Source of the DNA: a virus
Strand: one strand, 5' to 3'
DNA: 64,000 nucleotides
Virus record (IMG/VR): IMGVR_UViG_3300043499_000238
Coordinates: 1 to 64,000 of that record
Of the stretch, positions 21,704 to 64,000 are shown one piece after another (within the stretch, counting starts at the first letter, position 1; every line of letters starts with the position of its first letter). Below the pieces are notes generated by a model. It was given only the letters and a program-made list of their open reading frames with translations. It had not been told where the DNA came from and ran no database searches. The position numbers and the translations under genes are program-made.

Positions 21704-21930
21704 AGGAGGCCGTTTCCAATCACTGATTTGGAGAGACCCCCCTTTCAGAATCGGGACATGATCTGGCTCGGGACGCCGAGCCGGTAGGTGCGCCGGAGCG
21801 GCGACGCACGCCCACCCCTTCCGCCGGGGGCGGCGAATGGCGAGACCGCCCCGACGCACCGTTCTACCGAGCATGCGGTACTCCGCCCGGCGGACCATGT
21901 CGCACCCCCTGCGTAGGGTCGTGGCATGGG
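21704..21930 (+). ncRNA. Candidate structured RNA
   Basis: TACGCT at 21692 with no start codon after it; stems GACATG/CATGTC, CGGTAG/CTACCG, GGTGCG/CGCACC, GGGGCGG/CCGCCCC. Confidence 0.4.
21713..21782 (+). repeat. ~70 bp conserved non-coding element, copy 2
   Basis: Same spacing as 20241-20310; hairpin GGCTCGG/CCGAGCC. Confidence 0.8.
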
Positions 21931-21954
21931 AGGAAATGTCGACAGATGTTGTGC

Positions 21955-21999
21955 TGAGACGTTGCACGACGTTGAACATCTGCTACTATCACTGGTGTG
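21955..21999 (+). promoter_or_regulatory. Class-1 promoter/operator element
   Basis: TTGCAC-16-(TGC)TACTAT-CACTGGT-GTG; CGTTG at 21960 and 21970. Confidence 0.85.
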
Positions 22000-22806
22000 A
22001 GCAACGCACCTGCCTCTCCCCCTCAGCTCGGCTTCATCGAGCGACTCCTCGCCGAGCGCACCAGCCAGGCGCCCCAGGGTGTCGACGCCTTCATGGAGGT
22101 GCTGCGCACCAAGCGGATCACCAAGGAAGGCGCCAGCTCGCTGATCAACAGCCTGCTGGCCATCCCGGTGGACGTGGTCGAGGCGCCGGTCGCCGAGGCT
22201 GGCACCCCGGCCCGTGACCTGAGCCGCCGCAGCAACGCCTACGCAGGCAAGTGCGGCAAGTGCGGCCACACCGTGGCAGCGCGCGAGGGGTACCTCACCG
22301 GCAGCCGCGGCAACTGGGGCTGCGAGCACCTGGAGGGCGCCTGCCCCACCGAGGCCGCCAAGCCCGGCGTGCACGAGCTGAGCGAGATCGTGGGCGACCT
22401 GGAGGACGGCAACTACGCCATCCCCGCCACGTCCGGTGAGACCGACGTGTGGTACTTCACGGTCAAGACGAACAAGGGGTTCTACAACCCCGACAAGAAG
22501 GGTCAGCGCATCGTGCGCATGGTCGCTGGCGGCGGCAACGAGTTCCCGATCACCAACGAGTGGGTGCGCAAGGCTGTCGCCTCGGTGCGTGCGCTCGGCA
22601 CCACCGAGTCGATGCAGATGTTCGCTCGTGAGATGCACATCTGCGGCCGCTGCGGTGAGGATCTGACTCAGGTCACGAGCAAGGTCACCGGCTTCGGCCC
22701 GGTGTGCCGCCGCAAGATCCACTACGTGGTCTCCCCCGCCGAGGCCGCTGAGATCAAGCGCCTCATCGAGGAGGCCAAGGCTCGTGGCGAAGACTTGTTG
22801 GTCTGA
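21997..22806 (+). CDS. Protein with C-terminal DUF6011-like zinc motif
   Basis: CGRCGEDLT..TS...GFGPVC. Confidence 0.8.
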   Translation: MSNAPASPPQLGFIERLLAERTSQAPQGVDAFMEVLRTKRITKEGASSLINSLLAIPVDVVEAPVAEAGTPARDLSRRSNAYAGKCGKCGHTVAAREGYLTGSRGNWGCEHLEGACPTEAAKPGVHELSEIVGDLEDGNYAIPATSGETDVWYFTVKTNKGFYNPDKKGQRIVRMVAGGGNEFPITNEWVRKAVASVRALGTTESMQMFAREMHICGRCGEDLTQVTSKVTGFGPVCRRKIHYVVSPAEAAEIKRLIEEAKARGEDLLV

Positions 22807-22849
22807 GACGTTGTACATCGTTGAACGACCTGCTACCATCACTGCTGTG
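22804..22849 (+). promoter_or_regulatory. Class-1 promoter/operator element
   Basis: TTGTAC-17-(TGC)TACCAT-CACTGCT-GTG; CGTTG at 22809 and 22819. Confidence 0.85.
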
Positions 22850-24436
22850 ACCACCACCACCAACTACCGCACTGCACTCGGCCCCCTCGCCGACGTCGTG
22901 ATGCCTCACCTCATGGGCGAGGCGCACGTCGTCGCTCGTGGGCTGGCCGCCATGGCAGTCGCCACCGACGCCGACCTCGACACCTCGAACATCCTCGCCC
23001 CCGGCGTGGTGCTGTTCCCCTACCAGCGCGCTGGCATCGTCTACGCCCTGCAGGCCCGTCGCTGCGTCATCGGACACGCCATGGGCCTCGGCAAGACGGT
23101 CCAGGCCATCGCCGCCCTCGCCATCGAGAAGCGCAACACCGGCAGCCTCCGGGCGCTCGTGGTCGCTCCTCCGAGCCTCACCCTGAACTGGGTGCGTGAG
23201 TTCAAGATGTTCGCACCGCACCTCACGGTCGCAGTGGTCAAGGGCCAGACGCCCTCCGAGGTGCCGGACACCGACGTCGTGATCATCGGTCACAGCGTCG
23301 TCAAGCACTGGGAGAAGGCACTCATCGCCGCCCAGTTCGACGCACTCGTGATCGATGAGAGCCAGAACTTCAAGAGCCGCACGGCGCAGCGCACGAAGAG
23401 CATGCAGCAGGTCGCCCGCTGGCTGGACGACGATGCGCTCGTGCTCCTGCTCTCCGGCACGTTCGTCACCAACGACCCGGGCGAGGCCGCCCCGCAGCTC
23501 CAGATCCTCAACGTCATCGACGGGCTGTTCGGCGACGTGTTCGGCTTCCTCGACCGCTACTACCCCAAGGTCAACAAGTGGGACCGCGAGCCTCGCAACC
23601 TCGCCGAGCTGCACGAGATCCTCCTCGACTCGTGCTACTGCCGCCTGACGTTCGATCAGGTGCGTGGCCAGATGGGCGACCGTGCGCCGAAGGGTGTCGC
23701 TCGCCAGAGCACCGCCGTGGAGATGCACGGCAAGGCTGCCACCGACTACAAGGTCGCTCTGGCCAAGCTCCGCAGCTACCTGCTGGAGCACCACGAGGAG
23801 ATCGCTCTGGAGGAGGGCATGACCATCGCCGAGGCCGAGCGCCTCGCCGAGGAGAAGACGGAGCGCAGCATGAAGGCTGAGGCGCTCGTGCAGCTCGGCG
23901 TGCTCCGCCGCCTGGCTGGCGAGGCCAAGATCCCGAGCGTCATCTCGTTCGTGGAGAACCTGGTGGAGCAGGGCGAGCAGGTCATCGTCTTCGGTTGGCA
24001 CAAGGACGTTGTCCGCACCATCGCTGCCCACTTCGGTGCTCGCACGATCATGGGTGGTGACAAGGTGGAGGCTGTCGAGGAGGCCAAGGCTCGCTTCCAG
24101 GCCGGGCTGGACAAGGTCATCGTGCTCAACATCAAGGCAGGCGGCACGGGCCACACGCTCACCGCCGCCAGCCAGGTCGTCTTCGCCGAGTTCCCCTGGA
24201 CGCCCACCGACTACCAGCAGGCCGAGGCCCGCGCCGACCGCATCGGTCAGACCGAGCTGGTCACCTCGCACGCTCTGCTCGCCGCCAACGGTGAGAGCAC
24301 GATCGATGAGGCGCTCGTGGGCATCCTCAACCGCAAGGCGCTGATCGTCGGCGAGCTGCTCGACGGCAAGGCTGACACCCTGATCGAGGATCAGAGTGTC
24401 GCCGACGCCCTCCTCGATTGGGCGAGGGGGGCGTGA
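22847..24436 (+). CDS. Second SNF2-family (HARP-like) helicase
   Basis: LFPYQ, MGLGKT, IDESQ, LSGT, GTGHTLT, QAEARADRIGQ. Confidence 0.92.
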   Translation: MTTTTNYRTALGPLADVVMPHLMGEAHVVARGLAAMAVATDADLDTSNILAPGVVLFPYQRAGIVYALQARRCVIGHAMGLGKTVQAIAALAIEKRNTGSLRALVVAPPSLTLNWVREFKMFAPHLTVAVVKGQTPSEVPDTDVVIIGHSVVKHWEKALIAAQFDALVIDESQNFKSRTAQRTKSMQQVARWLDDDALVLLLSGTFVTNDPGEAAPQLQILNVIDGLFGDVFGFLDRYYPKVNKWDREPRNLAELHEILLDSCYCRLTFDQVRGQMGDRAPKGVARQSTAVEMHGKAATDYKVALAKLRSYLLEHHEEIALEEGMTIAEAERLAEEKTERSMKAEALVQLGVLRRLAGEAKIPSVISFVENLVEQGEQVIVFGWHKDVVRTIAAHFGARTIMGGDKVEAVEEAKARFQAGLDKVIVLNIKAGGTGHTLTAASQVVFAEFPWTPTDYQQAEARADRIGQTELVTSHALLAANGESTIDEALVGILNRKALIVGELLDGKADTLIEDQSVADALLDWARGA

Positions 24437-24447
24437 TGGTTGAGCCG

Positions 24448-24492
24448 AGATGTTGTGCATCGTTGAACGACGGTGCTACACTCACCAGCATG
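24448..24492 (+). promoter_or_regulatory. Class-1 promoter/operator element
   Basis: TTGTGC-18-(TGC)TACACT-CACCAGC-ATG. Confidence 0.85.
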
Positions 24493-25248
24493 AACGCACC
24501 CACGCCCGAGCAGGAGCACGACGACCGGCTCCTCGCCCTCTTCCTCGCCGCCGACCAGGCCGAGCAGCAGCTCGCCTGGAAGACCGACACCTACCGCCGC
24601 GAGTCGTTGACCCGCAACGACCCCCGCCAGGGCTGGAAGGGGCCGAAGGACATCCGCACGATGAACGAGGTCGCCGACGACCTGCAGGCCCGCCGCGACG
24701 AGCTGGTCCCGTTCTGGACCGAGCGCTCGGACAACGCCGAGGACGCCGCCCGCATGATCGCCTACACGGTCGGCGAGCTGGACCAGGTCGAGACGGCGTA
24801 CTTCGAGGCGCTCGGCGCCACGGCTGTCGCCCGGTACGAGATCACCGCCCACGAGCAGAGCTACACCGGCTGGCAGCGCTACTTCCTCGTGACCAGCTCG
24901 GCCGGTCTCGTGCACGCCAGCATGAACTGCAGCACCTGCAACAAGGGCCGCCAGGCCACGACGTTCGCTCTGCTGCCGAGCTGCTCGGGCCGCTCGCACG
25001 AGGCGCTCGTTGCGGCGCTCGGGCCGTCGCTGTGCAGCGTCTGCTTCCCCGACGCCCCGGTCGCCTGGACCGACGAGCAGAGGATCTCCCCCAACGTCGC
25101 CACGGTGCTCGCCACCCAGGGCGAGGAGGCGTTCTGGACGGCGCTCGCCGACAGCCGTGCGAAGGCTGCCAAGCGCGCCGCCACCAAGGCTCGCAACGAC
25201 GCCGAGCTGGCCGCCCGCCGGGCCGCCCGTGCTGCAGGCAATCGTTGA
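24490..25248 (+). CDS. Conserved actinophage protein with H..CSTC...LCSVCFPDAPV motif
   Basis: Motif and promoter-defined start. Confidence 0.8.
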   Translation: MNAPTPEQEHDDRLLALFLAADQAEQQLAWKTDTYRRESLTRNDPRQGWKGPKDIRTMNEVADDLQARRDELVPFWTERSDNAEDAARMIAYTVGELDQVETAYFEALGATAVARYEITAHEQSYTGWQRYFLVTSSAGLVHASMNCSTCNKGRQATTFALLPSCSGRSHEALVAALGPSLCSVCFPDAPVAWTDEQRISPNVATVLATQGEEAFWTALADSRAKAAKRAATKARNDAELAARRAARAAGNR

Positions 25249-25294
25249 ACGACGTTGCGTAACCACCACCACTGCTGCTACCATCACTGACATG
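25241..25294 (+). promoter_or_regulatory. Class-1 promoter/operator element
   Basis: CGTTGAACGACG-TTGCGT-18-(TGC)TACCAT-CACTGAC-ATG. Confidence 0.85.
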
Positions 25295-25522
25295 AGCACT
25301 TCCAATCCCTACGTCGTCAGCCGTGCGGCCCGCGACATCGTCGTCGGCAACGTCCTGCTGGACGGCAAGGTCACCCGCGTCGACGCCGCCACCACGCCCG
25401 GCGTGATCTACCTCTGGCTGAACGGCAGCCTCAACGTCGCCGCCGACGTGGTCCTGAACCACGGCGACCCCGTCAAGGTCTACCCGCAGGGCCGCGGCCG
25501 CGTCGGCGCCCCCCGCGCCTGA
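25292..25522 (+). CDS. Small beta-rich hypothetical protein
   Basis: Promoter-defined ATG. Confidence 0.75.
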   Translation: MSTSNPYVVSRAARDIVVGNVLLDGKVTRVDAATTPGVIYLWLNGSLNVAADVVLNHGDPVKVYPQGRGRVGAPRA

Positions 25523-25565
25523 TCCACCACCCACTGACCAACCACCTCACCAAGGAACCACCACC

Positions 25566-26039
25566 ATGAAGCGCAACGAGATCGCTACCGGCACCCCCGT
25601 GCGGATCCGCCCCAGCAACAGCCGCTACGGCCACAACTACGGCCACAACATCGGCCGCATCGTGAGCGACAACGTGTCGCTCCGCACCGTCGGCTACTTC
25701 GGCAAGACGACCGCTCTGGTCGACGTCGAGTGGTACGCCACGCTGAGCAGCGACGGCTCCACCCGACGCTGGGCCGAGACCCGGGTCGAGAAGACCGACT
25801 CCCGCAAGCTGGAGGCGATCGATGTCGCCAAGCTCGCCGCCGAGTACCGCGCGAGCCACGAGCTGGAGCAGGCCCACCAGAACGACGTCATCGAACGGCG
25901 TGACCAGATCGACGCCAACCTCGCCACCATCCGCGCCGCCCTCGGTAACGACCAGTGGGGCTACGCCCGCAACGAGCGCGAGATCACGCTCACCGCCGCC
26001 GAGCTGGCCGCCATCGTGAGCAAGGTCGTGGCGTCATGA
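25566..26039 (+). CDS. Hypothetical protein
   Basis: SD AAGGAACCACC. Confidence 0.75.
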   Translation: MKRNEIATGTPVRIRPSNSRYGHNYGHNIGRIVSDNVSLRTVGYFGKTTALVDVEWYATLSSDGSTRRWAETRVEKTDSRKLEAIDVAKLAAEYRASHELEQAHQNDVIERRDQIDANLATIRAALGNDQWGYARNEREITLTAAELAAIVSKVVAS

Positions 26040-26302
26040 GCCTCACCGTCGCACTGCAGCACCACCTGCAGTACAACCACTACCCATCGATCAGTGCTCG
26101 GTTCGTGCCGTCCGCTGAGCGCGCCATCGAGCTGGCCAACGAGGACGACTGGGACGCCATGATCGAGCTGCCCAACGGCGTGTCGATCTCGGTCGGCGAG
26201 ATCGTGGACCAGCTCCACCTCACCACGTTCGTCACGTTCCCCGAGGACGAGGAGCTGGAGGACGACCTGGAGGAGATCGAGCGCCAGGAGCTGTCGCGGT
26301 GA
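26036..26302 (+). CDS. Hypothetical protein
   Basis: ATGA overlap; HLQYNHYP motif. Confidence 0.7.
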   Translation: MSLTVALQHHLQYNHYPSISARFVPSAERAIELANEDDWDAMIELPNGVSISVGEIVDQLHLTTFVTFPEDEELEDDLEEIERQELSR

Positions 26303-26469
26303 GCAACCCCCGCGACAACGCCGACGACGCCTACGCAGCGTTCATGAGCATGCCCCAGTCCGAGTGGCTCGGGCTGTGCATGTCACTGCTCGGAGGCGGC
26401 GTGCTGCAGCCCGAGGAGCAGATCGGGTTCGAGCGTGCGCTCGCCGACCGAGCGAAGGCGCAGGGCTGA
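26299..26469 (+). CDS. Small hypothetical protein (56 aa)
   Basis: GTGA overlap; codon usage. Confidence 0.55.
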   Translation: MSNPRDNADDAYAAFMSMPQSEWLGLCMSLLGGGVLQPEEQIGFERALADRAKAQG

Positions 26470-26636
26470 GTCATTCAACAGAATGCCACCATTGCCCTCT
26501 GTACGCCCCTGTGAGCGACGCAAGCGAATCTGCGCACCGAACACCGCACCGAGGCCCGTTACGTCGATCCTGGCGCAACGGGCTTCGTCGCGTAACGGCC
26601 GCTGGTCCATGGCGCAGTAGGCGCAGAGGCTCGTGG
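26470..26636 (-). ncRNA. Candidate small RNA from a divergent promoter
   Basis: Minus-strand TGTTGAACGA...TGCTATCATCAC promoter (26641-26670) with no start codon at +1; stem CGTTACG/CGTAACG. Confidence 0.4.
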
Positions 26637-26682
26637 GCGAGTGATGATAGCAACGCACCATCGTTCAACAAATGCTCGCAAC

Positions 26683-26725
26683 CACGTTGGCACGGCGTTG
26701 AACGTCTGCTAGCATCACTCTCGTG
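26683..26725 (+). promoter_or_regulatory. Class-1 promoter/operator element
   Basis: TTGGCA-17-(TGC)TAGCAT-CACTCTC-GTG. Confidence 0.85.
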
Positions 26726-26902
26726 ACCACCACCCCAACCCCCGGCACCCGCGTGTCGATCCGCAAGTACGGCTCGGTGTACCCGGCCTTCCTCGTGCGC
26801 ACCACGCCCACGCGGGCACTCGTGCGCTTCACCACCAAGGCCGGTCGGGCCAAGGAGATGTTCATCCCCTTGTCCGACGTGCTCGGCAAGTCCCCGTACT
26901 GA
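26723..26902 (+). CDS. Small SH3/KOW-like protein (59 aa, below ORF-track cutoff)
   Basis: Promoter-defined GTG; MTTTPTPGTRVSIRKYG... Confidence 0.7.
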   Translation: MTTTPTPGTRVSIRKYGSVYPAFLVRTTPTRALVRFTTKAGRAKEMFIPLSDVLGKSPY

Positions 26903-26929
26903 CCAACCACCACCACCGAAGGAACCACC

Positions 26930-27703
26930 GTGACTGACACCGCAACCACCACCAACTTCGAGCTGGACATCCTGCTCGCCAAGGTCGAGAAGATGTGGCG
27001 CCGGGCCAACCACCCGAACACGCCCCCGGCCGAGAAGGCCGTCGCCGAGGCCAAGGCGCTGTCGCTCATGGCGCAGCACCGCATCGAGATGGCGATGCTC
27101 AACATCGAGCAGGCCGACGAGCTGGCTGACCACGAGTACGGCGTGTTGAAGGGCGCCTACGGCCTGCTGCACGCCAGCCTGATCTCCGAGGTCGCCCAGG
27201 CGTACGACTGCCGTGTTTGGTGGCGCTCCAGCGGGATGACGTACAACGTGCGCATCAGCGGGTTCCGCTCCGACTTCGAGCGCGTCAAGCGCCTCGCCAA
27301 CTTCCTCCTCACCGATGCGGTGGCGCAGTCGTGCGAGTTCAAGTCGCGGTCGATCGCAGTCACCAAGGACTACCGGCGCTCGTTCGTCGCCGGGTACACG
27401 GTCGAGATCGGCAAGCGCCTGCGCGAGAGCGTGCGCCTCGCTCGCACCGCTGCCGTGGCGCACGCCGCTGAGACCGTGACCGAGGCGGCTGCCGAGCAGC
27501 GCGTCGTGGGCGCCGAGCTGGTGCTCGTGGAGCGCAAGAAGGCCGTCGAGTCGTTCATGCGCACCAAGCGCCTGCGTCACGTCGGCCACTCCACGGGGCG
27601 CAGCTCCAACGGTCGGGCCAACGGCGCCATCGCCGCCCGCAACGCTGACCTCAGCGGCGGCCGCAACCGGGTCGGCTCGGGCACCAAGGCGCTCGGGCGA
27701 TGA
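26930..27703 (+). CDS. DUF2786-domain protein
   Basis: LLAKVEKM..RA..P.TP.AE...A.AKA..LM..H.I; RRSFVAGY. Confidence 0.8.
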   Translation: MTDTATTTNFELDILLAKVEKMWRRANHPNTPPAEKAVAEAKALSLMAQHRIEMAMLNIEQADELADHEYGVLKGAYGLLHASLISEVAQAYDCRVWWRSSGMTYNVRISGFRSDFERVKRLANFLLTDAVAQSCEFKSRSIAVTKDYRRSFVAGYTVEIGKRLRESVRLARTAAVAHAAETVTEAAAEQRVVGAELVLVERKKAVESFMRTKRLRHVGHSTGRSSNGRANGAIAARNADLSGGRNRVGSGTKALGR

Positions 27704-28212
27704 GAGACGTCAGCAAGAGCGTGGCCTACGGCGCCGAGCTGCACGCCTTCACCAACACGCTGCTCGGCGAGCAGCAGGACTTCGCCTCCCTCGTGAGCAC
27801 CACGAGGGAGGTGGAGGCCACGCCGGAGTGGCAGCACGTCTACGGCAACACGCCGCTCAACATCATCAGCACTCGTGGCTCCCACGACTACGCCCGTGGG
27901 TTCACCACCATCGCCTACAAGACGATCGGCTCGTGGCGCTTCGCAGTGCCGCACGAGATGGCCCACATCCTCACCGACGACCGCCACGGCCCGAGCTGGC
28001 GCGCACGCTACGTGTGGCTCGTGCGCATCATGTACGGCAACGAGTGGGCCGAGGCACTCATCGCCGGGTTCGACAGCTCCAAGCTGTCGGTCGTGAGCTT
28101 CCCCGTCGCACGCACCACGCCGATGCTGCCGCCCGAGCTGTTCGACGCTCAGGTCGGCAGCCCTCTGTTCGCACCCACCACCAACGCGCCCGCCCGGGCG
28201 ATCGCACTGTAA
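27700..28212 (+). CDS. HExxH metallohydrolase (TIGR04338/Rv0185-like)
   Basis: PHEMAHIL...HGPSWRARYVWLV; directly after DUF2786 gene. Confidence 0.7.
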   Translation: MRDVSKSVAYGAELHAFTNTLLGEQQDFASLVSTTREVEATPEWQHVYGNTPLNIISTRGSHDYARGFTTIAYKTIGSWRFAVPHEMAHILTDDRHGPSWRARYVWLVRIMYGNEWAEALIAGFDSSKLSVVSFPVARTTPMLPPELFDAQVGSPLFAPTTNAPARAIAL

Positions 28213-28221
28213 GGAACCACC

Positions 28222-28830
28222 ATGGCCAAGATCACCAACGTAGCCTCGGCACGCAAGCGCAAGGACGGCAATGACCCTCACACCTGCTACGCCTGCCACG
28301 AGGACATCGCCGAGGGCCAGTCGTACTCGTGGTGCCAGCCCAGCCGGTACAGCCCTCGCATCAACTGGCACAGCACCTGCCCCACGCCTCCGCCGTCACG
28401 GCTGGAGTCGAACGAGAAGCGTGCCGCCGCCATGGCTGCATTCGAGGAGGGCTACGACGACCTGAGTGCACTGCGCGAGACCGACACCGAGACCACCACG
28501 GTCGACGGTGAGGAGGTCGTGTTCGATCCTGAGGCGTTCGTGGAGGAGATCAAGTCGGTGCTGGGCGCCATCGCCGAGAACGTGCGTGAGGCCGGTGAGC
28601 TGTGGCGTGAGGCCGCCAGCAACATCGAGGACGGGTTCGGTCACTCCACCTCGATGTCCGAGGAGTTCGAGGGGTACGCCGACGATGTCGAGGGCGTCGC
28701 CGATGAAGTCGACAACATCGAGCCGGACGAGTACGACGCTGAGCAGTGGGACGACGTGCAGCAGTGGCTGGAGGCCACGATCGACAGCGTCGTGGACGAG
28801 ATGGGCAGTGCTGAGGGCAATCTGCCCTGA
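28222..28830 (+). CDS. Hypothetical protein (Zn motif + acidic helical domain)
   Basis: SD AAGGAACCACC; CYAC...HSTC. Confidence 0.75.
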   Translation: MAKITNVASARKRKDGNDPHTCYACHEDIAEGQSYSWCQPSRYSPRINWHSTCPTPPPSRLESNEKRAAAMAAFEEGYDDLSALRETDTETTTVDGEEVVFDPEAFVEEIKSVLGAIAENVREAGELWREAASNIEDGFGHSTSMSEEFEGYADDVEGVADEVDNIEPDEYDAEQWDDVQQWLEATIDSVVDEMGSAEGNLP

Positions 28831-28872
28831 GACGTTGCATGTCGTTGAACGACTGCTACACTCACCAGTATG
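28828..28872 (+). promoter_or_regulatory. Class-1 promoter/operator element
   Basis: TTGCAT-16-(TGC)TACACT-CACCAGT-ATG; CGTTG at 28833 and 28843. Confidence 0.85.
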
Positions 28873-29298
28873 ACCACCACTCACATCACCGCCGACCTCT
28901 TCGCCGACGCCAACGTCGCCGGAGGCTGGACCGAGCACGACACGGTTGCTCGCCGGATCTGCACCGCCATGTGGAAGGCCACCGGCGCCTTCGGCCGCAT
29001 CACCAACTACCACTCGGACGTCGTCCTCGACTGCATCACGGTGCAGGACATCGTGGCCAAGCTGGAGCCGGGTCGTGGCTTCGACTTCCTCTACAGCGTC
29101 GGCGCCAACGGCACGATGCTGATGCGTAGCACGAAGAACGAGGACATCGCCTTCTTCCTCGCCGACGACCGCGGTGGCGACTCGGCTCGCTTCCTCGTGA
29201 CCATCAACCGCTCGCACCTGGAGACCACGCCCTACGGGTCGACGTGGGGCGGAGACAAGTACGAGCTGATCGTCCGCACGCTCGAAGCCGCCGCCTGA
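28870..29298 (+). CDS. Hypothetical protein
   Basis: Promoter-defined ATG. Confidence 0.75.
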   Translation: MTTTHITADLFADANVAGGWTEHDTVARRICTAMWKATGAFGRITNYHSDVVLDCITVQDIVAKLEPGRGFDFLYSVGANGTMLMRSTKNEDIAFFLADDRGGDSARFLVTINRSHLETTPYGSTWGGDKYELIVRTLEAAA

Positions 29299-29333
29299 GC
29301 AACCCTGTTACACCCATCAACGATACTGAAAGC

Positions 29334-29720
29334 ATGAACATCCCCATGAGCACCACCCGCACCACCGCCGCCGAGCGCCTCGCCGACGAGATCCTCGCCG
29401 CCAAGGCCGAGCTGGCCCAGCAGGAGCTGGCAGTCAAGGAGCTGCAGAAGGCTCTCCTGGCCCTGGCCCCGGTCGGCACCGTCATCATCCGCGACGCTGG
29501 CAAGGTCACCGTCACCGAGCGCACCGACCTGGTCGCCGATGTCGAGACCCTCCAGGGCGTCGCCAGCCGCTCGCTCTTCAAGAGCCTCACCAAGACGGTG
29601 TTCGACGTCGCTGGCTACCGGGCGCTCGTGACGCTCGGCAAGAGCACGCCGGAGATCGACGCAGTCGTGACGGAGAAGGTGAGCGCGCCGTTCCTGGTGA
29701 CCACGGTCGCCAAGAAGTGA
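29334..29720 (+). CDS. Hypothetical coiled-coil protein
   Basis: GATACT-6nt-ATG; architecture like 5520-5954. Confidence 0.7.
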   Translation: MNIPMSTTRTTAAERLADEILAAKAELAQQELAVKELQKALLALAPVGTVIIRDAGKVTVTERTDLVADVETLQGVASRSLFKSLTKTVFDVAGYRALVTLGKSTPEIDAVVTEKVSAPFLVTTVAKK

Positions 29721-30274
29721 CGTACGACGAGGCCCGCTTCTACCGCAGTGCCAACACTGCGGTAGCGGTGGGCACGGGCGTCATCACCGGGCTGGCCCTT
29801 GGCTGGGCCATCCGCCGCTTCTCAGCTCTGACGTGGCTGTACTTCGTCGCCTCGCAGGGCTGCATGTGGTGGGGCATCCTCATCACGCCGGACTGGGTCG
29901 ACCATCCCGAGCAGGAGGGGTTCACTGGCTTCCAGTGGTGCCTCTTCATCGCCGCCGCCGTGCTGTTCATCCTCGCCATCCGCGAGGGTGGGCGCAGCCT
30001 GCGGCGCTTCGCTCAGGCTCAGCTTGCAGCACAGCAGGAGTGGGCAGCTCAGCAGGTGCCAGCTCCAGTGCCAGCACCGACCACTCAGCGTGTCACACGC
30101 ACCGTCACGGTCACCAGGGCGCCAGTGCGCAACGAAGATGCGCAACAACGCTCACAGGGCACCACAGGCACCTCTCCGAGGCGTCCTGAGCCTCGGCCGG
30201 TACGCAGCATCGAACAGCACGGCAACCTCAGGATCACCGACCGCCGTCCGTTCGACCCTGAGCTGGGCGAGTGA
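29717..30274 (+). CDS. Membrane protein (3 predicted TM helices)
   Basis: Hydrophobic segments followed by a P/T-rich tail. Confidence 0.7.
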   Translation: MTYDEARFYRSANTAVAVGTGVITGLALGWAIRRFSALTWLYFVASQGCMWWGILITPDWVDHPEQEGFTGFQWCLFIAAAVLFILAIREGGRSLRRFAQAQLAAQQEWAAQQVPAPVPAPTTQRVTRTVTVTRAPVRNEDAQQRSQGTTGTSPRRPEPRPVRSIEQHGNLRITDRRPFDPELGE

Positions 30275-30284
30275 CTTCTACGGT

Positions 30285-30326
30285 GCGGCATGACGTTGAA
30301 CACCTCGTGCTACAGTCACCAGCGTG
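30285..30326 (+). promoter_or_regulatory. Class-1 promoter/operator element (weak -35)
   Basis: CGTTGAACA..(TGC)TACAGT-CACCAGC-GTG. Confidence 0.75.
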
Positions 30327-30737
30327 AAGTACACGGCCACCGAGGCAGCTCGGATCGCTGGCATCTCCTACCGGCAGCTCGACTACTGGGATCGCACTGG
30401 TCTCATCACGCCGAGCACACAGGAGGCGCACGGCTCAGGCACGCGCCGTGCCTACAGCTACCGCGACCTCGTAGACCTGCGCACGGTCAAGGCGATGCTG
30501 GACGCCAACATCGGGCTGTCGGCCGTGCGCAAGGTGATGCTCGTGCTGCAGCAGTTCCCCAGCCTCGACATCCCCAACCTCACTGTCGTGATGATGGGCG
30601 ACAGCGTGCGCCTGTGCTCGCAGGACGAGCTAGTCGAGATCGTGCGCACCGAGAAGGGCATGCTCAACGTGCTGCCGCTGAGTGGCATCACCGAGGCTCT
30701 CGACAACGAGTTGATGGTAGACGTTGTACATCGTTGA
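30324..30737 (+). CDS. MerR-family regulator, Rv1830/McdR-like
   Basis: GISYRQLDYWDRTGLITPS..A.GSGTRR.YSYRDL..L..VK.MLD. Confidence 0.88.
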   Translation: MKYTATEAARIAGISYRQLDYWDRTGLITPSTQEAHGSGTRRAYSYRDLVDLRTVKAMLDANIGLSAVRKVMLVLQQFPSLDIPNLTVVMMGDSVRLCSQDELVEIVRTEKGMLNVLPLSGITEALDNELMVDVVHR

Positions 30738-30763
30738 GTGATGCTGCTAGCATCACTGGTGTG
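30720..30763 (+). promoter_or_regulatory. Class-1 promoter/operator element
   Basis: TTGTAC-18-(TGC)TAGCAT-CACTGGT-GTG. Confidence 0.85.
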
Positions 30764-31057
30764 ACCACCACCAACGCCACCACCGTCCGCTGCGCCTGCG
30801 GCTACAACCTCACCGAGCGCCCCTGCCCGCACCACGGCATGGACCGCGCCCACACGTTCCGCACGGTCATCACCACGACCGGCAACGAGTGGCTCGGCTA
30901 CCGCAACGGCATCATCGTCGCTGTCTACGCCAACCGTTGGGTCGGCGAGTCCCGCCTCCAGGCCCGTAAGGTCGACTCGATCGCCCCCGTCGCCCAGTCG
31001 CTCAAAGGCGCCCCCGAGACCTTCATCGGCGAGCGCATCCTCGTGAAGGTGGCGTGA
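30761..31057 (+). CDS. Hypothetical protein
   Basis: Promoter-defined GTG. Confidence 0.7.
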   Translation: MTTTNATTVRCACGYNLTERPCPHHGMDRAHTFRTVITTTGNEWLGYRNGIIVAVYANRWVGESRLQARKVDSIAPVAQSLKGAPETFIGERILVKVA

Positions 31058-31248
31058 TGAGCCGCAAGGACTACCAGCTCCTCGCTGAGGCCATCCGCAA
31101 GGCCCGCATCCTGGTCACCGCCAGCGCCACGCTGACCTGCCCTGCTCAGGGCGTCGGCATCACCGCCAGCTTCATCGCTGAGGCGCTGGCTGATGACAAC
31201 CCAGCGTTCGACGCCGAGCGCTTCCTTGTAGCGGCTGGTGAGATGTGA
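31054..31248 (+). CDS. Small conserved phage protein
   Basis: MSRKDYQLLAEAI...DNPAFD.ERFL.A. Confidence 0.75.
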   Translation: MMSRKDYQLLAEAIRKARILVTASATLTCPAQGVGITASFIAEALADDNPAFDAERFLVAAGEM

Positions 31249-31469
31249 GCCAGTGCATCGAGACCGTCACCGGCCGCGTGAGCGTGGGCATCCTGGGCCG
31301 TGGCACCGAGTCGTTCCGCGACGGTGTCCCGCACCAGTGCCCGCGCCGGGCCGTCGAGGGCGCCACGCGCTGCGCTCAGCACCAGGCCATCGCCGACCGC
31401 CGAGCTGCCGTGGTCGCAGCTCGCAGGGCTGCTGCCCAATCGTTGAACGACGTTGTGGAACTGCCGTGA
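31245..31469 (+). CDS. Small hypothetical protein
   Basis: GTGA overlap; C...C...C..H. Confidence 0.55.
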   Translation: MSQCIETVTGRVSVGILGRGTESFRDGVPHQCPRRAVEGATRCAQHQAIADRRAAVVAARRAAAQSLNDVVELP

Positions 31470-31492
31470 CTGCTGCTAGCATCACCACCATG
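31439..31492 (+). promoter_or_regulatory. Class-1 promoter/operator element
   Basis: CGTTGAACGACG-TTGTGG-18-(TGC)TAGCAT-CACCACC-ATG. Confidence 0.85.
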
Positions 31493-31690
31493 ACCAACGA
31501 CCACGACCTCGGCTTCGAGGCATCAGTCAAGCTGGAGCAGTGGACGGCGATGGAGCAGGAGGCTCTGCGCTTCGCCGCTGAGTACGACGAGAAGGGCTGG
31601 ACCTTCGCGGCCACCCTCGCCCGCCGCCGTGCTCGTGGCTACAAGAGCGCCCGCAACCGCCTCGCCCGTCGCATGGGATGGCTGTCATGA
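31490..31690 (+). CDS. Small basic hypothetical protein
   Basis: Promoter-defined ATG. Confidence 0.7.
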   Translation: MTNDHDLGFEASVKLEQWTAMEQEALRFAAEYDEKGWTFAATLARRRARGYKSARNRLARRMGWLS

Positions 31691-32016
31691 GCACCTACCG
31701 CTGCACCGAGTGCGACGCCACGTTCCCCACGCTCGCCAAGGCCAGCCGGTGCCACTGGGGCATCGGCGGCGTGGAGGAGGTCACCCCTCGCCCGCTGTAC
31801 GAGATCGCCGCCGAGATCACCGCCGACTGGAAGCCGGTGTGGTTCGGTGCGGTGCCCTACGTCGAGGCGATGGGCTGCCTCACCTCGCTGGACCAGATGT
31901 ACGGCATGGAGTCCGGGCGCATCATCGTGAGCTACTTCCTCAGCAACGCCAAGCTCTGGCGCGGCGACACGGCCAAGCGCATCAAGCGTGAGCTGAGGGC
32001 GATCCTCGATGCCTGA
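31687..32016 (+). CDS. Conserved phage protein
   Basis: RPLYEIA.EI..DW....FGAVPY..AM...YFLSNA..WRG.TAKRIK.EL. Confidence 0.8.
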   Translation: MSTYRCTECDATFPTLAKASRCHWGIGGVEEVTPRPLYEIAAEITADWKPVWFGAVPYVEAMGCLTSLDQMYGMESGRIIVSYFLSNAKLWRGDTAKRIKRELRAILDA

Positions 32017-32020
32017 TCTC

Positions 32021-32068
32021 TCAACGACGTTGTGTGTCTCCGATGCTGCTGCTAGCATCACACCTGTG
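32021..32068 (+). promoter_or_regulatory. Class-1 promoter with palindromic CAACGACGTTG
   Basis: TTGTGT-17-(TGC)TAGCAT-CACACCT-GTG. Confidence 0.85.
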
Positions 32069-38763: not shown

Positions 38764-39129
38764 GCACCATGTACCGCTACGCACACATCGCCGCACTGGT
38801 GATGAGTGTGATCGCAGTACTGGTCTTCCTGGTGGCCTGGCATCACGCCCGCCGTCACTGAGCACGCTCCACCTCGAACGTCACGCAGCAACTGCCCAAC
38901 GCAGCAGCCAGCCGCCGCCCACTACCGAGTGCAGTGGTCAACCCGCGCCCACGTAACCAACGCACCATGGCCGCCCCGCACAGGGACGCCGTTGGATACT
39001 CACCAAGCTCGTACTCGACGCCGCCCACCGACACGCTCAGTAGGTAGAGGTCGTGGTCGATGAGGATGGACACGGTGGTGGTGGGTAGTGCGTTCACACC
39101 TAGTACAAGGAGCGTTGCGCACCTCGATG

Positions 39130-39850
39130 TCAACGCCACCCGGCACGCCGCCTAGCTAGCCGGACAGGCCGCCCGTAAGTGCTTCACTGCTCCACAGCCA
39201 CTGCATGCACTACTCACACTCACACACGCACCCGTAGCGCTCACAGCACAACGACGTTGCGCTCACGCACGTTGCTACCTGGTGTGCGTCTACCACTCGC
39301 GCGACAGCCGCGCGCGAGCACTCAGGCCCGCACCCCGCCCCTACCGTCATACCGCAGCAAGCGCTCACGCTGCGTGTGCAACAGCTCTAATGAGGAGGCT
39401 GCGCCTCCGCATTAGCGCTTAGTCGTACAACGGCGTTGCGCCATTAGGCACTAATGGGCGCTACGCGCGCACGCCATTAGCACTAAGCAGCGGAGCTGCT
39501 AAGCGCTAATTGCGCAACGCAAGCAAGCAGCGCTGAGCTGCGTAGCAGCGCAGCTCTGCGTTAGCAACGTGCAACGACGTTGCGCATGTCACACCCTGTG
39601 GAGGTTGCGTTCGGCGTAGCCGAGCGCTACCACCCCCCACCCTTAAGTCGGCGGCTGCGCAGCAGTCGGCGGCTGGAGGTAGGCGCAATCCCAGCCACAA
39701 CAGCATCGAGCTACGTACCCCTAGGCCCATTCCTGAGCCGAGATAGCTATTCAGCCGTACCACTAACCACTGCCGTACCCCCGTTAGTTAGCTGGTAGGC
39801 GCAGGCCGTAAGCGGGCGCACTGCTGGGAGTCGTACAACGACGTTGTGGG
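39130..39850. other. Non-coding island rich in hairpins, CATTAG/CTAATG repeats and CAACGnCGTTG palindromes (ori/pac/terminus or ncRNA candidate)
   Basis: No credible ORF; hairpins at 39387-39415, 39441-39457, 39476-39510, 39535-39556; long stem 39511-39519/39578-39586. Confidence 0.7.
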
Positions 39851-39866
39851 GAAGTAGGATGTGTGG

Positions 39867-49806: not shown

Positions 49807-50841
49807 TCAGCCTGCGTCGCCGGTCGCCGCGGCCGAGTCGGCCGTGGTGTTGTCCTGCGTCTGCGTGACCGTCAACGTCGCGGTGTTGGTGGCCGTGGCC
49901 GCCCCCGTCGTGATGTTGTTGCTCGCCGTCGAGGCGTTGGTCCCGGTGTTGGTGTTGCCACCGCTGCTGGTCCCACCCGCACCACCGGTCGCCTCGGCGG
50001 CATCGCTGCCGCTGGCGGCCGACGCACCCGAGCCGCCGGAGGCGGACGAGGTCGAGTCGCTGGACGAGTCGCTGGTGTGGGCGCTGCCGCCGTCGGCGTC
50101 GCTGTCGGCGTCCTGCGACGCCGAGTTGCTCTGGTTCACCGTGTTGGTCGCCGTGTTGCCGCCCGAGTTGGACGAGGCGTCCTGGCTCACCGAAGCGTGC
50201 ACGGTGGCGTCCTGGTAGACGCTCGCCGAAGCGCTGGCCTCCGCACCGGTCGGCGTCGAGGACGCCGCGGTGGCGCCGCCAGCCGAGGAGGCCGACGTGG
50301 CCGCCCCACCGGTCGCCGTCGCCGTGTTGGTGTTGTCGTTGGTCTGCTCCTGCGAGATGCCGCCGTTGACGGTGTTGCCCGCCGTGGCCGCACCGGCTGC
50401 GATGCCGTTGGTGGCGCCGCTCGTGTTGCCGCCCGTGTTGCCGTTGGTGGCATCGCTGCCGCCGCCGACTCCGCCGGTCGCCTTCACGCCGCCGCCGCCC
50501 TCGGCCGCCGAGGCGCCCGAGCCGGAAGCCGCCGAGACCTCGTCCTCGGAGCGGTCGCTCGAAGAAGCGTCCCCACCGTTGGCGTCGGAGTTGGACTCCT
50601 GGTCGGCGCTGTTGGACTGGTCGACGTAGTTGTACTCGACGTTGTCCCCGGTGTTGGTGTACGCCTTCTGGCACAGCTCGACGTCGGCGACGGCCGACTG
50701 AGTCACGCTGGAGCTGGCGTCCGAGACGGCCGGATCGGGAGCCGGTGCCTCTTCGGCGGACGCCGCAGCGCCGACACCGATGGTCAACCCCGCCGAAGCG
50801 AGGGTGGCGAGAACGACTCGCCGGGTCTTGGAACGAAGCAT
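49807..50841 (-). CDS. Secreted G/S/T/N/Q/A-rich repeat protein (putative functional-amyloid major subunit)
   Basis: Signal peptide; SD AGGAGG; two ~150-aa imperfect repeats containing QSNSA.Q..SDA.GG and I..GAATA.N. Confidence 0.85.
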   Translation of the reverse strand: MLRSKTRRVVLATLASAGLTIGVGAAASAEEAPAPDPAVSDASSSVTQSAVADVELCQKAYTNTGDNVEYNYVDQSNSADQESNSDANGGDASSSDRSEDEVSAASGSGASAAEGGGGVKATGGVGGGSDATNGNTGGNTSGATNGIAAGAATAGNTVNGGISQEQTNDNTNTATATGGAATSASSAGGATAASSTPTGAEASASASVYQDATVHASVSQDASSNSGGNTATNTVNQSNSASQDADSDADGGSAHTSDSSSDSTSSASGGSGASAASGSDAAEATGGAGGTSSGGNTNTGTNASTASNNITTGAATATNTATLTVTQTQDNTTADSAAATGDAG

Positions 50842-51075
50842 TGTGCCTCCTGGTTCAGGGCGTTACCGCCGTTTGCTGCGCCGAGGGGTGCCTGAGTGGA
50901 AGCTGACCCGGTTACCCGCCGTCCCCGCCACACCGTGTTCCTCTCGACTCGGAGCGCAACCTAACACAGATGTGGTGCGTGATGGAAGCGTTCACACACG
51001 CTTCTTTCAAGGATGTGGAGTGTTACGACTAGGTGACAATCAACGACGTTGGCACCTGCGTGAGCGCCTACGCGA

Positions 51076-51111
51076 CAAGACCCCGAGGTCACCTCCATCC
51101 TCGGGGTCTTG
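51076..51111. terminator. Perfect 13-bp inverted repeat
   Basis: CAAGACCCCGAGG / CCTCGGGGTCTTG. Confidence 0.55.
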
Positions 51112-51346
51112 GGGTTCGGTCTTCGGCCTGCGGAACATGCGCAGACTGCGCTCGGGTGTCCACAGCGCCGACAGGTTGGCGCAGCGCGTTCGACGGCCCA
51201 CCGACGACACGCCGATCGCCGCCTGGGTCAACGGTCGGGTGGCCGTCTTCGCCCATTCGTCGTACTGCGGTTTCGTGGGAGCTGGGTCGAGCTTCACGCT
51301 CCGACCGTAGATCCCCAGTGGCGAGGTGATGTTGTGGGTTATGTCG

Positions 51347-51385
51347 TTGCAGTCATTCAACGACGTGTCTAGACTGCCACCCATG
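51347..51385 (+). promoter_or_regulatory. Class-1 leaderless promoter with inverted operator motif
   Basis: TTGCAG-17(TCATTCAACGACGTGTC)-TAGACT-7nt-ATG. Confidence 0.75.
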
Positions 51386-57274: not shown

Positions 57275-58861
57275 GTGACGGCAGCCGTACGCGAGATCGC
57301 CGAAGAGCGATACGAGGAGTACGTCGAGGAGCAAGAGGAGGCCGAGGACTTCGTTGAGGTCGACCCCGACTCCGAGGAGTTCATCCACGAGCTGACGATG
57401 CGCTGCATGGTCTTCATGGAGGCGCTGGCCGAGATACAGCTCCACCCCTATCAGAAGGATCTGGCGTACCGCACGATCCAGTCGGTGTTGCTCAACGACG
57501 GCGCCGAGATCACCGCCCTGTGGGCACGCCAGTCCGGCAAATCGACAGCGCTGGCGTCGATCATCGCGACGATGATGGTGCTGCTGCCCAAGTTGGCGGC
57601 CGCCTATCCCGAGCACTTCCCCCAGTTCGCTCGTGGGTTCCTCGTCGGAGTGTTTGCTCCGACTGAGGAGCAGGCGTACACGGTGTGGTCGAAGATCCAC
57701 GACATCCTCACCTGCAAGCGCGGCCGCGAGATCCTCAGCGACGAGGACATCGAGGACGTGCCGCAGAAGGAAGGCTCCAAGGTCAAGGTCGTCCGCCTCG
57801 TCAACAGCGGCTCGCTGTGCCGCATGCAGACCGCCAACCCGAAGGCGCAGATCGAGTCGAAGACGTACCACTTCGTGCTCCTCGATGAGAGCCAGGACTG
57901 CGACTCGGAGAAGGCACGCAAGTCGATCTTCCCGATGCTCGCCTCGACCAACGGCACCAAGGTGTTCACCGGCACCTGCTCGCGCAAGCGCAACTTCTTC
58001 TATGACGCCATCCAGGCCAACAAGCGCAAGGCGCTCCGTCGAGGCTCCCGGCAGGACCACTTCCAGTACAACTGGAAGGTCGTCGTCAAGTTCAACAGCT
58101 TCTACAAGAAGTACATCGCTGGGGAGAAGGAGCGGCTCGGCGAGGACAGTGACGAGTTCCGCCTGAGCTACGCATGCGAGTGGTTGCTGGAGTCGGGGAT
58201 GTTCGTGACCGAGGAGTCGTTGGACTTCCTTGGCGATCCCGGCATGGAGATCCAGCCGTGGTTCGTGGTCGACAAGTGCGTTGCGGGAATCGACGTGGCG
58301 CGCACCAAGGACTCGACCGTCGTCACCGTGATGTGGGTCGACTGGAACAACCCCGACCCGTACGGCTACTGCCAGCACCGCATCCTCAACTGGCTGGAGA
58401 TCCACAACAAGCTGTGGGAGCAGCAGTACGCACAGATCATCGAGTTCCTGTCGCACTACAACGTCGCGATCGTCGGTGTCGACGGTCAGGGCATGGGCCA
58501 GCCCGTCGGCGAGCGCATCGCCCACGAGATGCCGTGGGTCGACGTGCGCATCCTCAGCTCGGACCAGTCCACCCAGGAGAAGCGCTGGAAGCGGCTCAAG
58601 GCGTTGATCGAGCGGCGCATGTTCATCTACCCGGCCGGTCGCAAGACCAAGAGGCTGCGCTGCTACAAGCGCTTCCGGCTGCAGTTCGAGGAGCTGGAGA
58701 CGGCGTACAGCGGCAAGTACATGCTCGCCGCAGCGCCCGAGGCGGTCAACGCCTTCGATGACTACTGCGACTCGGCGGCCCTCGGCGTGGCCGTCACCGA
58801 GGACGAGGACTTCGGCGTGGTGCAGGTGGTCGACTCACCGTTCCATGGTCGCCACCGGTAA
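57275..58861 (+). CDS. terL: Terminase large subunit
   Basis: ARQSGKS, LLDESQD, GIDVAR..DSTV, DDYCDS. Confidence 0.95.
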   Translation: MTAAVREIAEERYEEYVEEQEEAEDFVEVDPDSEEFIHELTMRCMVFMEALAEIQLHPYQKDLAYRTIQSVLLNDGAEITALWARQSGKSTALASIIATMMVLLPKLAAAYPEHFPQFARGFLVGVFAPTEEQAYTVWSKIHDILTCKRGREILSDEDIEDVPQKEGSKVKVVRLVNSGSLCRMQTANPKAQIESKTYHFVLLDESQDCDSEKARKSIFPMLASTNGTKVFTGTCSRKRNFFYDAIQANKRKALRRGSRQDHFQYNWKVVVKFNSFYKKYIAGEKERLGEDSDEFRLSYACEWLLESGMFVTEESLDFLGDPGMEIQPWFVVDKCVAGIDVARTKDSTVVTVMWVDWNNPDPYGYCQHRILNWLEIHNKLWEQQYAQIIEFLSHYNVAIVGVDGQGMGQPVGERIAHEMPWVDVRILSSDQSTQEKRWKRLKALIERRMFIYPAGRKTKRLRCYKRFRLQFEELETAYSGKYMLAAAPEAVNAFDDYCDSAALGVAVTEDEDFGVVQVVDSPFHGRHR

Positions 58862-62778: not shown

Positions 62779-63573
62779 GTGACGATCCGAGGCCGTATCT
62801 ACCGAGGGGAGGTGCGCCACGCCGTTCCGACGTACCAGCACCCCGACCCAGCGGCGCATGCGGCCGAGGATCCCGAGGGCTTCCTCCACCAGTGGATGCA
62901 GCCGCACTACCCGTACCCGAAGGGCTGGACCGGCGACGCTCCCACCGTCGGCCAGCACTGGACGCGCTCGCCGCAGAGCATCCCCGAGCGCTTCATCGAG
63001 CCGGTGCTGCTGCGCCCGCAGCCGGGTGTGCCGATGGGCAAGCGTGAGCAGACCGCCGTGATGCGCCGGGAGGCGACCGAGCAGGACACGGGTGGCCCGG
63101 GCTACGGCATGCCCGGCCACGAAGAGCACCAGGAGATGATGCGCAAGTACGCGGCGCATGCCGACCGAGCTGACCGTCAGGGCATCAACACGTACCACGA
63201 TCTCTCCGGCGGCGACCCGGACCGCCCGGGAGCGGCCAAGCCGTACAAGATGGCCGTGGTGTGGGAGGGCCAGCACCATGAAGCTGCCGAGCAAGGCACC
63301 AACTACGAGGACGAGCTGAACATCCCCATGGGTGAGCACGTCACCGTCACTGGTGCGCGCATCTACGTACCGAAGCCAGGCGTGGAGCACGACTTCCGGG
63401 CGCGCCACCCGTCGGTGTTCACGCCCGAGGAGCACGCCCACGCACGGGCCGACGTGATCACTCGATCGGCGTACAGCCACATCGACCCCCACTCGTCTAT
63501 CCCTTGGAGCCGGATCCAGTTCGAGAACGCTCAGCAGCTCAAAGTCGATCGCTACCGGGGAGGGTCGCGCTGA
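62779..63573 (+). CDS. Putative ADP-ribosyltransferase-fold protein
   Basis: IYRG ... GQHWTRS ... EDEL.I..G..V.V (R-S/T-E triad order). Confidence 0.55.
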   Translation: MTIRGRIYRGEVRHAVPTYQHPDPAAHAAEDPEGFLHQWMQPHYPYPKGWTGDAPTVGQHWTRSPQSIPERFIEPVLLRPQPGVPMGKREQTAVMRREATEQDTGGPGYGMPGHEEHQEMMRKYAAHADRADRQGINTYHDLSGGDPDRPGAAKPYKMAVVWEGQHHEAAEQGTNYEDELNIPMGEHVTVTGARIYVPKPGVEHDFRARHPSVFTPEEHAHARADVITRSAYSHIDPHSSIPWSRIQFENAQQLKVDRYRGGSR

Positions 63574-63587
63574 GCTACAGTGATCTT

Positions 63588-63965
63588 GAACGTTGGCGTG
63601 AAGAAGGGGACGAGTTATGCGACAACCGGCTCGCCCTGGAGTAGTCGCTGACGACGGGGTCGGGCCGCAGGCACGCAGGTCCGGTTGGTCCGACCCCGAC
63701 CATTCGATGGAGGGCACGTACTGGTGATCTCGATCGGTGCTGGTGAAGCACGGGCACTTGCCCCTGACGCTTTCCTTGGATGCGACGTACAGCCTTCTGG
63801 TTCGCCGGACTGGCCGAGGCGGGACACCATGGTCTGTCGTTCAGGGAGAGAGACCCGGATGGATCCAGAGACCGACGAGGGCATCGGGTAGGCGTTCACG
63901 GACGTTGAGAAGTGCGGGGGGACCGTGATCCTCCCAATGCGGCGACGTGCCCTCCCTCAATCCAG
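63588..63965 (+). ncRNA. Candidate large structured non-coding RNA (~370 nt)
   Basis: -10 TACAGT at 63576 with no start codon; 11-bp closing stem 63709-63719/63945-63955; 9-bp stem 63655-63663/63690-63698; TTCG-capped hairpin. Confidence 0.6.
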
Positions 63966-63984
63966 CGAGCAGTACGGTTGGTCC

Positions 63985-64000
63985 ATGGCCAAGCACGAGC
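63985..64000 (+). CDS. Start of next gene (truncated by window)
   Basis: TACGGT-6nt-ATG. Confidence 0.5.

Follow-up and report, generated by a model that had tools for sequence, protein, structure and literature searches.

A probable new structured RNA in an accessory module of high-GC actinobacterial phages

In this work we describe a conserved element of ~396 nt that is probably a new structured RNA, new in the sense that neither of its two copies matches a family of Rfam 15. The first copy occupies positions 63574-63969 of the analysed stretch (hereafter the window), which is the first 64 kb of the IMG/VR virus record IMGVR_UViG_3300043499_000238 (111,140 bp, 65% G+C). The second lies in another IMG/VR contig, L016. 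Judged by comparison of both copies, the element is non-coding and evolves under purifying selection, with compensatory changes that preserve its helices. Within a small clade of ~111-kb high-GC actinobacterial phages it behaves as an accessory module. Considered as a whole, the observations are best explained by a structured + strand RNA that is accessory, stands alone and has a -10-only promoter of its own, an account that we regard as reasonably likely. The initial annotation of this stretch had proposed an undescribed structured + strand RNA of ~370 nt. That core idea holds, given the non-coding homolog and the compensatory changes, but several of the proposed helices and a pseudoknot do not.

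Genomic setting and distribution

The element belongs to an island flanked by the terminase (57275-58861) and portal (66098-67789) genes. This terminase-portal stretch is composed of small accessory genes, and the island is absent from more distant relatives. According to the portal protein, the nearest cultured kin are the 112-116-kb Streptomyces phages GiJojo, Alone3 and BRock (53-57% identity), and the terminase-portal interval of GiJojo contains no comparable gap. Directly 5' of the gap there is a gene for a 264-aa protein (62779-63573, stop codon 63571-63573). The downstream gene starts at ATG 63985 and its 70-aa product is the called protein P0001. The gap of 400 bp reported initially is therefore real: positions 63574-63984 contain no protein-coding gene, and the gap ranks fourth by size among the 23 gaps of at least 120 nt in the 111-kb record. 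The element is followed by a cassette of genes for the 70-aa protein, a 155-aa protein and a zinc-protease-like protein, and both carriers have this same cassette. As a separate observation, the family of the 264-aa protein comprises at least 16 clusters and is marked by invariant RGE, HW..SP and YEDE motifs; Pfam and PHROGs gave no match.

The features of the element and its borders, in window positions and all on the + strand, are the following:

63572-63593, +: invariant 22-nt block with the -10-like TACAGT, identical in the window and L016 despite different upstream genes
63574-63969, +: whole conserved non-coding element, ~396 nt, between the upstream stop codon and the promoter of the next gene
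63591-63653, +: predicted 5' stem-loop domain, with an outer helix (63591-63596/63648-63653) and an inner helix (~63606-63616/63628-63637)
63617-63727, +: small ORF A, 36 codons, of doubtful status, preceded by a purine-rich Shine-Dalgarno-like tract at 63600-63609
63655-63698, +: predicted hairpin P1, with a 12-bp G+C-rich stem (63655-63666/63687-63698), terminator-like but without a U tract
63709-63955, +: predicted 3' domain, ~247 nt, closed by an 11-bp helix (63709-63719/63945-63955)
63721-63887, +: predicted long-range helix P3 (63721-63726/63882-63887 and 63729-63732/63876-63879), made of nearly invariant blocks
63796-63809, +: predicted UNCG-tetraloop hairpin with a 5-bp stem, UUCG in the window and UCCG in L016
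63859-63891, +: mini-ORF B, 10 codons, of doubtful status, with a purine-rich tract upstream
63916-63935, +: predicted hairpin P11 (63916-63922/63929-63935), obtained separately in both copies
63973-63987, +: putative leaderless promoter TACGGT and ATG 63985 of the next gene, outside the element and conserved in L016 and L008

Relatives of the locus were obtained by two routes. A sensitive protein search placed the 264-aa protein in its family, and an alignment-based scan then gave contigs L008-L011; a scan with the downstream 70-aa protein gave the IMG/VR contigs L015 and L016. L015 is identical to L016 in the element region, so that there are only two distinct element sequences. By blastn, window positions 63571-66200 align with L016 positions 2591-5224 at 76%. 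Within the element itself identity is 69-71%, with 20-30 gap columns. Homology with L016 starts at the stop codon and TACAGT, and the upstream genes of L016 (422 and 209 aa) are unrelated to those of the window. Consequently, the element travels with its own -10 box.

L008 is the closest relative by flanking genes (75% identical in the 264-aa protein, 89% in the portal), and a spacer of only 42 nt joins its stop codon to the conserved TACGGT-ATG. Some 370 nt are thus absent from L008, and homology resumes at ~63970. The element is thus an accessory module, an indel relative to L008. We considered the L008 spacer as a leftover of the 3' end of the element and rejected it, as the alignment was not convincing. 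In L009-L011 the portal gene lies directly 3' of the 264-aa gene, and L002-L007 lack the entire island.

No second copy or paralog of the element appeared in the rest of the genome or in the relatives by blastn, tblastx or a covariance model. Among GenBank phages there was no blastn match to the window or to the L016 stretch and no tblastn match with two flanking proteins, and plasmids gave no match. With the 264-aa protein as sole query, viral and metagenome contigs returned no match, and exact or degenerate DNA patterns were without a hit in viral, metagenome or genome contigs. Three contigs matched by an 18-nt invariant block (L019-L021) have nothing else in common with the element and were discarded as chance matches. 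Near-identical relatives are represented by NCBI contigs of 2,405 and 111,550 bp, whose proteins cluster with the 70-aa protein. The element does not have the makeup of a MITE-like mobile element with terminal inverted repeats. A 14-nt inverted repeat (63706-63719/63945-63958) is found inside the indel (63574 to ~63969), not at its ends.

Conservation and predicted structure

A codon-usage model trained on 26 long genes of the same genome gave negative log-odds in all frames over 63570-63840, and every ORF of the gap scored negative. None of the ten candidate ORFs of the gap is among the called proteins on record, and the gap ORFs have no Pfam or PHROG match. Substitutions between the window and L016 are distributed by position modulo 3 as 33/45/44, with no third-position bias. 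Indels within the element are of 1, 2 and 10 nt, not multiples of three, and the conserved nucleotide blocks fall in different reading frames in the window and in L016. The element thus has none of the marks of a protein-coding gene (conserved frame, third-position bias, indels in multiples of three). In L016, stops and frameshifts interrupt a minus-strand ORF of 94 aa (63615-63899) that the initial annotation had listed as a potential refutation. Two further coding candidates were rejected. For an N-terminal extension of the next gene, starting at GTG 63925, the frame is open in the window and in L016, but the changes have no wobble bias and L008 starts at the ATG. A gene produced by read-through of TAG 63889 or by frameshift was likewise discarded. 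Elsewhere in the genome, the same model calls no gene in window 38862-39860 (999 nt), 50788-51382 (595 nt) and 21578-21996 (419 nt) or in G000 89561-89940 (380 nt), and it misses some real genes, such as one at ~65800-66097.

The element is more conserved than the four-fold degenerate sites of the adjacent genes, and it contains invariant runs of 18-22 nt. Between the window and L016, identity at four-fold sites amounts to 41% for the 70-aa gene and to 62-65% for the 155-aa, zinc-protease-like and portal genes. Identity above that of neighbouring four-fold sites, together with long invariant blocks, means that the element is not drifting neutrally. A small gene upstream of the portal (L023 2795-3105, which is G000 65795-66105; L016 4770-5130) has ~94% nucleotide identity, whereas identity between the window genome and L016 falls to 68-79% in the genes located 1-2 kb to the left. 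From this contrast we infer that the island is a recombination mosaic. As conservation varies in this way along the genomes, the relevant yardstick for the element is the adjacent 70-aa gene.

The window copy folded alone does not deserve the term highly structured that had been given to it. Over 390 nt, its fold z-score is -0.73 on the + strand and -0.47 on the minus strand, no better than shuffles, and the 253-nt domain alone reaches -1.14. The hairpin at 63655-63698 is the only standout, with z -3.1 on the + strand versus -0.86 on the minus strand. The L016 copy alone has a fold z of -3.3. Regarding known RNAs, no Rfam 15 family matched at gathering threshold anywhere in the window; the families covered include 6S, Ms1, pRNA, group I and II introns, RNase P, SRP, tmRNA, GOLLD, ROOL, HEARO, OLE, raiA and riboswitches. 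At E values up to 10 there was only noise (blv_FSE at 14.6 bits in the window; serC at 12.6 and flavivirus xrRNA at 11.5 bits in L016). ARAGORN found 0 tRNA or tmRNA genes in the window. Both programs are in agreement with the earlier statement that tRNA, tmRNA, RNase P, SRP and group I signatures are lacking.

The evidence for structure comes from comparing the window with L016, where the homolog keeps the fold through compensatory changes. As all covariation evidence derives from two distinct sequences, it does not amount to R-scape-grade statistics, and the finding of a generic structured non-coding RNA (compensatory changes beyond controls, together with strand asymmetry) is provisional. 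On the plain MAFFT alignment, RNAalifold predicted 94 pairs, 14 of them with double changes, at a z of -2.2; 17 of 993 conservation-preserving column shuffles reached the observed energy. MAFFT misaligns the 5' part, where each copy alone folds the outer 5' helix and the 12-bp hairpin at matching places. We realigned the 5' arms by hand, guided by structure, and the strongest numbers depend on this realignment: a consensus of 98 pairs (64 invariant, 20 with one-sided and 14 with double changes, 0 broken) and a z of -6.2 (0/747 shuffles) on the + strand, against -2.3 on the minus strand, where double changes show no excess. The + strand preference proposed initially is therefore borne out, also by the many G-U pairs, which fit that strand only.

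Several comparisons do not require the realignment. In the plain alignment, the 3' domain has 73 consensus pairs, 100% paired, with 9 double changes, whereas slid controls give 0-2 double changes and ~42% pairing. Minimum-energy folds obtained independently for both copies share 18 pairs, with 3 double changes, in the plain alignment, those of the closing helix and of the 63916-63935 hairpin. Shuffles of this alignment share 3.3 +/- 4.2 pairs, reach 18 in 1 of 251 cases and reach 3 double changes in none of 251. After realignment the number of pairs common to the independent folds rises to 39, among which 8 double and 6 single compensatory changes are found (0/247 shuffles). Five helices are predicted separately in both copies, and no pair is broken. 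When the fold of one copy was transferred to the other, 33 of 64 changed pairs were kept versus ~24 in slid controls; in the opposite direction there was no excess over controls. Since the fold transfers only partly between copies, the inner branches of the 3' domain are uncertain, and they differ between the two single-sequence folds.

The predicted RNA would be tripartite, with a 5' stem-loop, then a 12-bp G+C hairpin, and lastly a ~250-nt domain whose closing helix has 11 bp. The outer and inner helices of the 5' domain are predicted separately in both copies, and the outer one shows 1 double and 2 single compensatory changes after realignment. P1 has a 12-bp counterpart in the same place of L016, with 4 double and 2 single changes and 0 broken pairs; it is conserved in shape, not in sequence, and a U tract is absent after it in both copies. 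In the 3' domain, the closing helix is retained in L016 through a C-G to U-A change. P3, as obtained by RNAalifold and pair counts, has 12 pairs, 3 with one-sided compatible changes and 0 broken. The stem of the UNCG hairpin is rewritten by compensatory changes in the same place of both copies, and P11 has 2 double and 2 single changes with 0 broken pairs. A perfect G+C hairpin in the style of P1, with a UUCG loop and no U tract, is also found at L027 ~5961-5984 (G000 ~69961-69984), just after gene 68804-69931 and before the next leaderless promoter.

The helices listed in the initial annotation are all present in the sequence within 1 nt of the positions given for them, and they fared unequally in the comparison with L016. 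A helix described as 9 bp is kept and is really 12 bp long. Also upheld were the 11-bp closing helix, GGGGGA/TCCTCC and the UUCG hairpin, whose loop reads UCCG in L016 and so remains UNCG, and GTGCT/AGCAC was partly supported. GCGAC/GTCGC fails because the region of its 3' arm is not alignable, and the outer helix 63591-63596/63648-63653 takes its place. For GCACTT/AAGTGC, CCCTGA/TCAGGG and the 5'-3' pseudoknot, the partners show no covariation in L016.

Promoter signals and competing explanations

The TACAGT at 63576-63581 comes just after the stop codon of the 264-aa gene, without a start codon at the usual 6-7 nt beyond, and the TACGGT at 63973 is followed by an ATG 6 nt later. This confirms both limits proposed for the gap, a -10 box lacking a start codon at one end and the promoter of the next gene at the other. 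The GC-TAnnnT context of TACAGT fits other promoters of the phage. Before many structural genes, over window 14331-64222 and beyond, there is a late-type arrangement: a stop codon, a few bases, TA(C/G)G(C/G)T, then ATG or GTG 6-7 nt on (58874, 60040 and 63973; further sites at G000 66086, 73210 and 100069). These repeats suggest a separate leaderless start for almost every late gene. TACAGT occupies the exact late-type position, after the stop codon, but the start codon is missing. A different, early-type set of leaderless promoters is found in window 21984-32053 (e.g. 22834, 24477, 28857 and 30748), with a TTG-type -35, a GC-TAnnnT -10 and ATG or GTG 7 nt after the -10. Near the early-type -35 the element GTTGAACGAC occurs in 5 exact copies; its core, TTGAACG, is also present at 63586, within the conserved element and just past its -10 box.

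A promoter scan of 63300-64300 found no sigma-70-type pair of -35 and -10 hexamers at 16-18 nt spacing. The -35 position of TACAGT falls in DNA that is not homologous between the window and L016, and only the -10 is conserved. Promoters with a -10 box alone are common in actinobacteria, and thus the missing sigma-70-type -35 is compatible with a promoter. A scan of the same interval gave no canonical intrinsic terminator (G+C-rich hairpin plus U run). Without a -35 box and a terminator at the 3' end, the RNA ends are guesses. The start site would be at ~63588-63589, 2-3 nt ahead of the first conserved helix.

We hypothesize that transcription from the -10-only promoter TACAGT, starting at ~63588, would give a stand-alone RNA of ~370 nt. 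Its most likely way of acting would be in trans, the 3' domain offering invariant loops and junctions to which a phage or host protein would bind. It is tempting to go further and see in the element the founding member of a new class of large phage non-coding RNAs, with its own promoter in the head-gene region of actinobacterial phages and acting in trans on a host or phage protein or as a catalyst; a polymerase or defence decoy and a capsid-loaded RNA would be examples of action in trans. We put this broader proposal forward only tentatively.

The element could instead be a cis-acting leader or attenuator of the downstream cassette, P1 being a conditional terminator for transcripts from TACAGT. 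Read-through would then be set by translation of ORF A across P1 and the 5' strands of P2/P3, or by a ligand or protein on the 3' domain. We think this unlikely, even if several observations are in its favour. In both carriers the element immediately precedes the same cassette, no terminator separates it from the next gene, and P1 is terminator-like and conserved in shape rather than in sequence. The Shine-Dalgarno-like tract, the start codon (ATG in the window, TTG in L016) and the stop block of ORF A are aligned between copies, with a length difference of 9 nt (36 vs 33 codons). Against it, the next gene is equipped with a leaderless promoter and an ATG of its own, conserved in L008 where the element is absent, and a read-through mRNA would provide that gene with no Shine-Dalgarno sequence. 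Moreover, the large domain is located 3' of the terminator-like hairpin, opposite to the order usual in riboswitches. No conserved regulatory codons are seen in ORF A, whose Shine-Dalgarno-like tract and start codon are both paired in the folds of the two copies.

There is less to recommend a division of the stretch into two units, namely a small RNA of ~115 nt, from the promoter to a terminator at P1, and, apart from it, a structured domain of ~250 nt that would have a role of its own or arise by processing of read-through transcripts. A 5' stem-loop followed by a strong G+C hairpin is indeed a small-RNA layout, P1 and the closing helix are set apart by a linker of 10-14 nt, the consensus contains no helices between the parts, and a G+C hairpin without a U tract also follows gene 68804-69931 in the same phage. 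On the other hand, the U tract is missing after P1 in both copies, no second promoter was seen before 63709, and the parts always co-occur, in two cases only. We consider this division improbable.

Equally improbable is that the stretch has no RNA function and represents a decaying cassette, micro-peptide genes (36 and 10 aa) or an element that acts at the level of DNA, for instance as protein-binding sites or as a recombination junction, because the identity above neighbouring four-fold sites and the long invariant blocks oppose decay, and compensatory double changes and many G-U pairs that fit the + strand only oppose a DNA element. This possibility draws on the window copy folding no better than shuffles, on the position of the element at a mosaic junction, on the alignment of two short ORFs with purine-rich tracts between copies, and on the occurrence of GATC 5 times in ~400 nt in both copies. 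Regarding the ORFs, the middle of the ORF A peptide is unrelated between the window and L016, and its codon score is -0.2 per codon. Mini-ORF B starts with ATG in the window and TTG in L016 and keeps 8 of 10 residues, but all wobble bases of its unchanged codons are identical, and its bases form strands of P3 and P5. Such frozen wobble bases within helix strands point to a constraint at the nucleotide level and not at the peptide level. Taking ORF A and mini-ORF B as genes is thus a minority reading, and regulatory translation is possible. As for GATC, the sites lie at window 63582, 63726, 63733, 63861 and 63927, ~4x the expectation from base composition, and three of them are conserved.

Significance and comparison with known RNAs

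The stand-alone RNA that we favour would have a compact anatomy, in which a putative promoter is followed by two 5' stem-loops and by a 250-nt domain bearing invariant loops, and L008, a close relative without the element at the exact site, provides a natural control. If transcribed, the element would offer a convenient system for studying RNA-based functions within accessory gene islands of phage head modules; host takeover, counter-defence and packaged cargo are possible examples. To our knowledge, very few large structured RNAs from actinobacterial phages have been described, and none from the terminase-portal region.

Hairpin terminators without a U tract ('I-shaped') have been described in actinobacteria. 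P1 is similar to them, a 12-bp G+C hairpin ~80 nt past a stop codon, but an I-shaped terminator would account for ~45 nt and leave the other ~350 conserved nt and their helices unexplained. The put RNA of HK022 and further cis-acting antiterminator leaders share with the element a layout of stem-loops just 3' of a promoter and before phage genes. However, put is ~70 nt long with two stem-loops, whereas the element adds a 250-nt domain and is followed by a gene with its own promoter, and there is no sequence or model match. The pRNA of phi29 is likewise a phage-encoded structured RNA, and our element sits between the terminase and portal genes. Nevertheless, pRNA is ~170 nt long, belongs to small phi29-like podoviruses and is needed for packaging, whereas the element is absent from L008 and from GiJojo-like phages and has no Rfam match. 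Since close relatives lack it, it cannot be an indispensable component of the packaging motor. The RNA polymerase-binding 6S RNA and mycobacterial Ms1, which the initial annotation had brought up, are stable, structured RNAs of 200-300 nt; the element would resemble them as a stable, structured, stand-alone RNA in a likely actinobacterial setting. The architectures differ, since 6S RNA takes the form of a long rod that has a bubble at its centre, whereas the element is predicted to form a branched domain after two stem-loops, and again there is no Rfam match.

About 10,000 candidate structured RNAs were predicted in IMG/VR viruses (PMC10690425), and the element is comparable in kind to these. 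It is likewise comparable to GOLLD, ROOL, HEARO, raiA and OLE, large structured non-coding RNAs of unknown role which are often found in phages or prophages. With ~370 nt, the element is smaller than GOLLD, ROOL and OLE, is known from two distinct sequences and matches no Rfam model. Like those RNAs, it is phage-borne, multi-helix in prediction and several hundred nt long, and it has been recognised, as they were, solely by conservation and compensatory changes.
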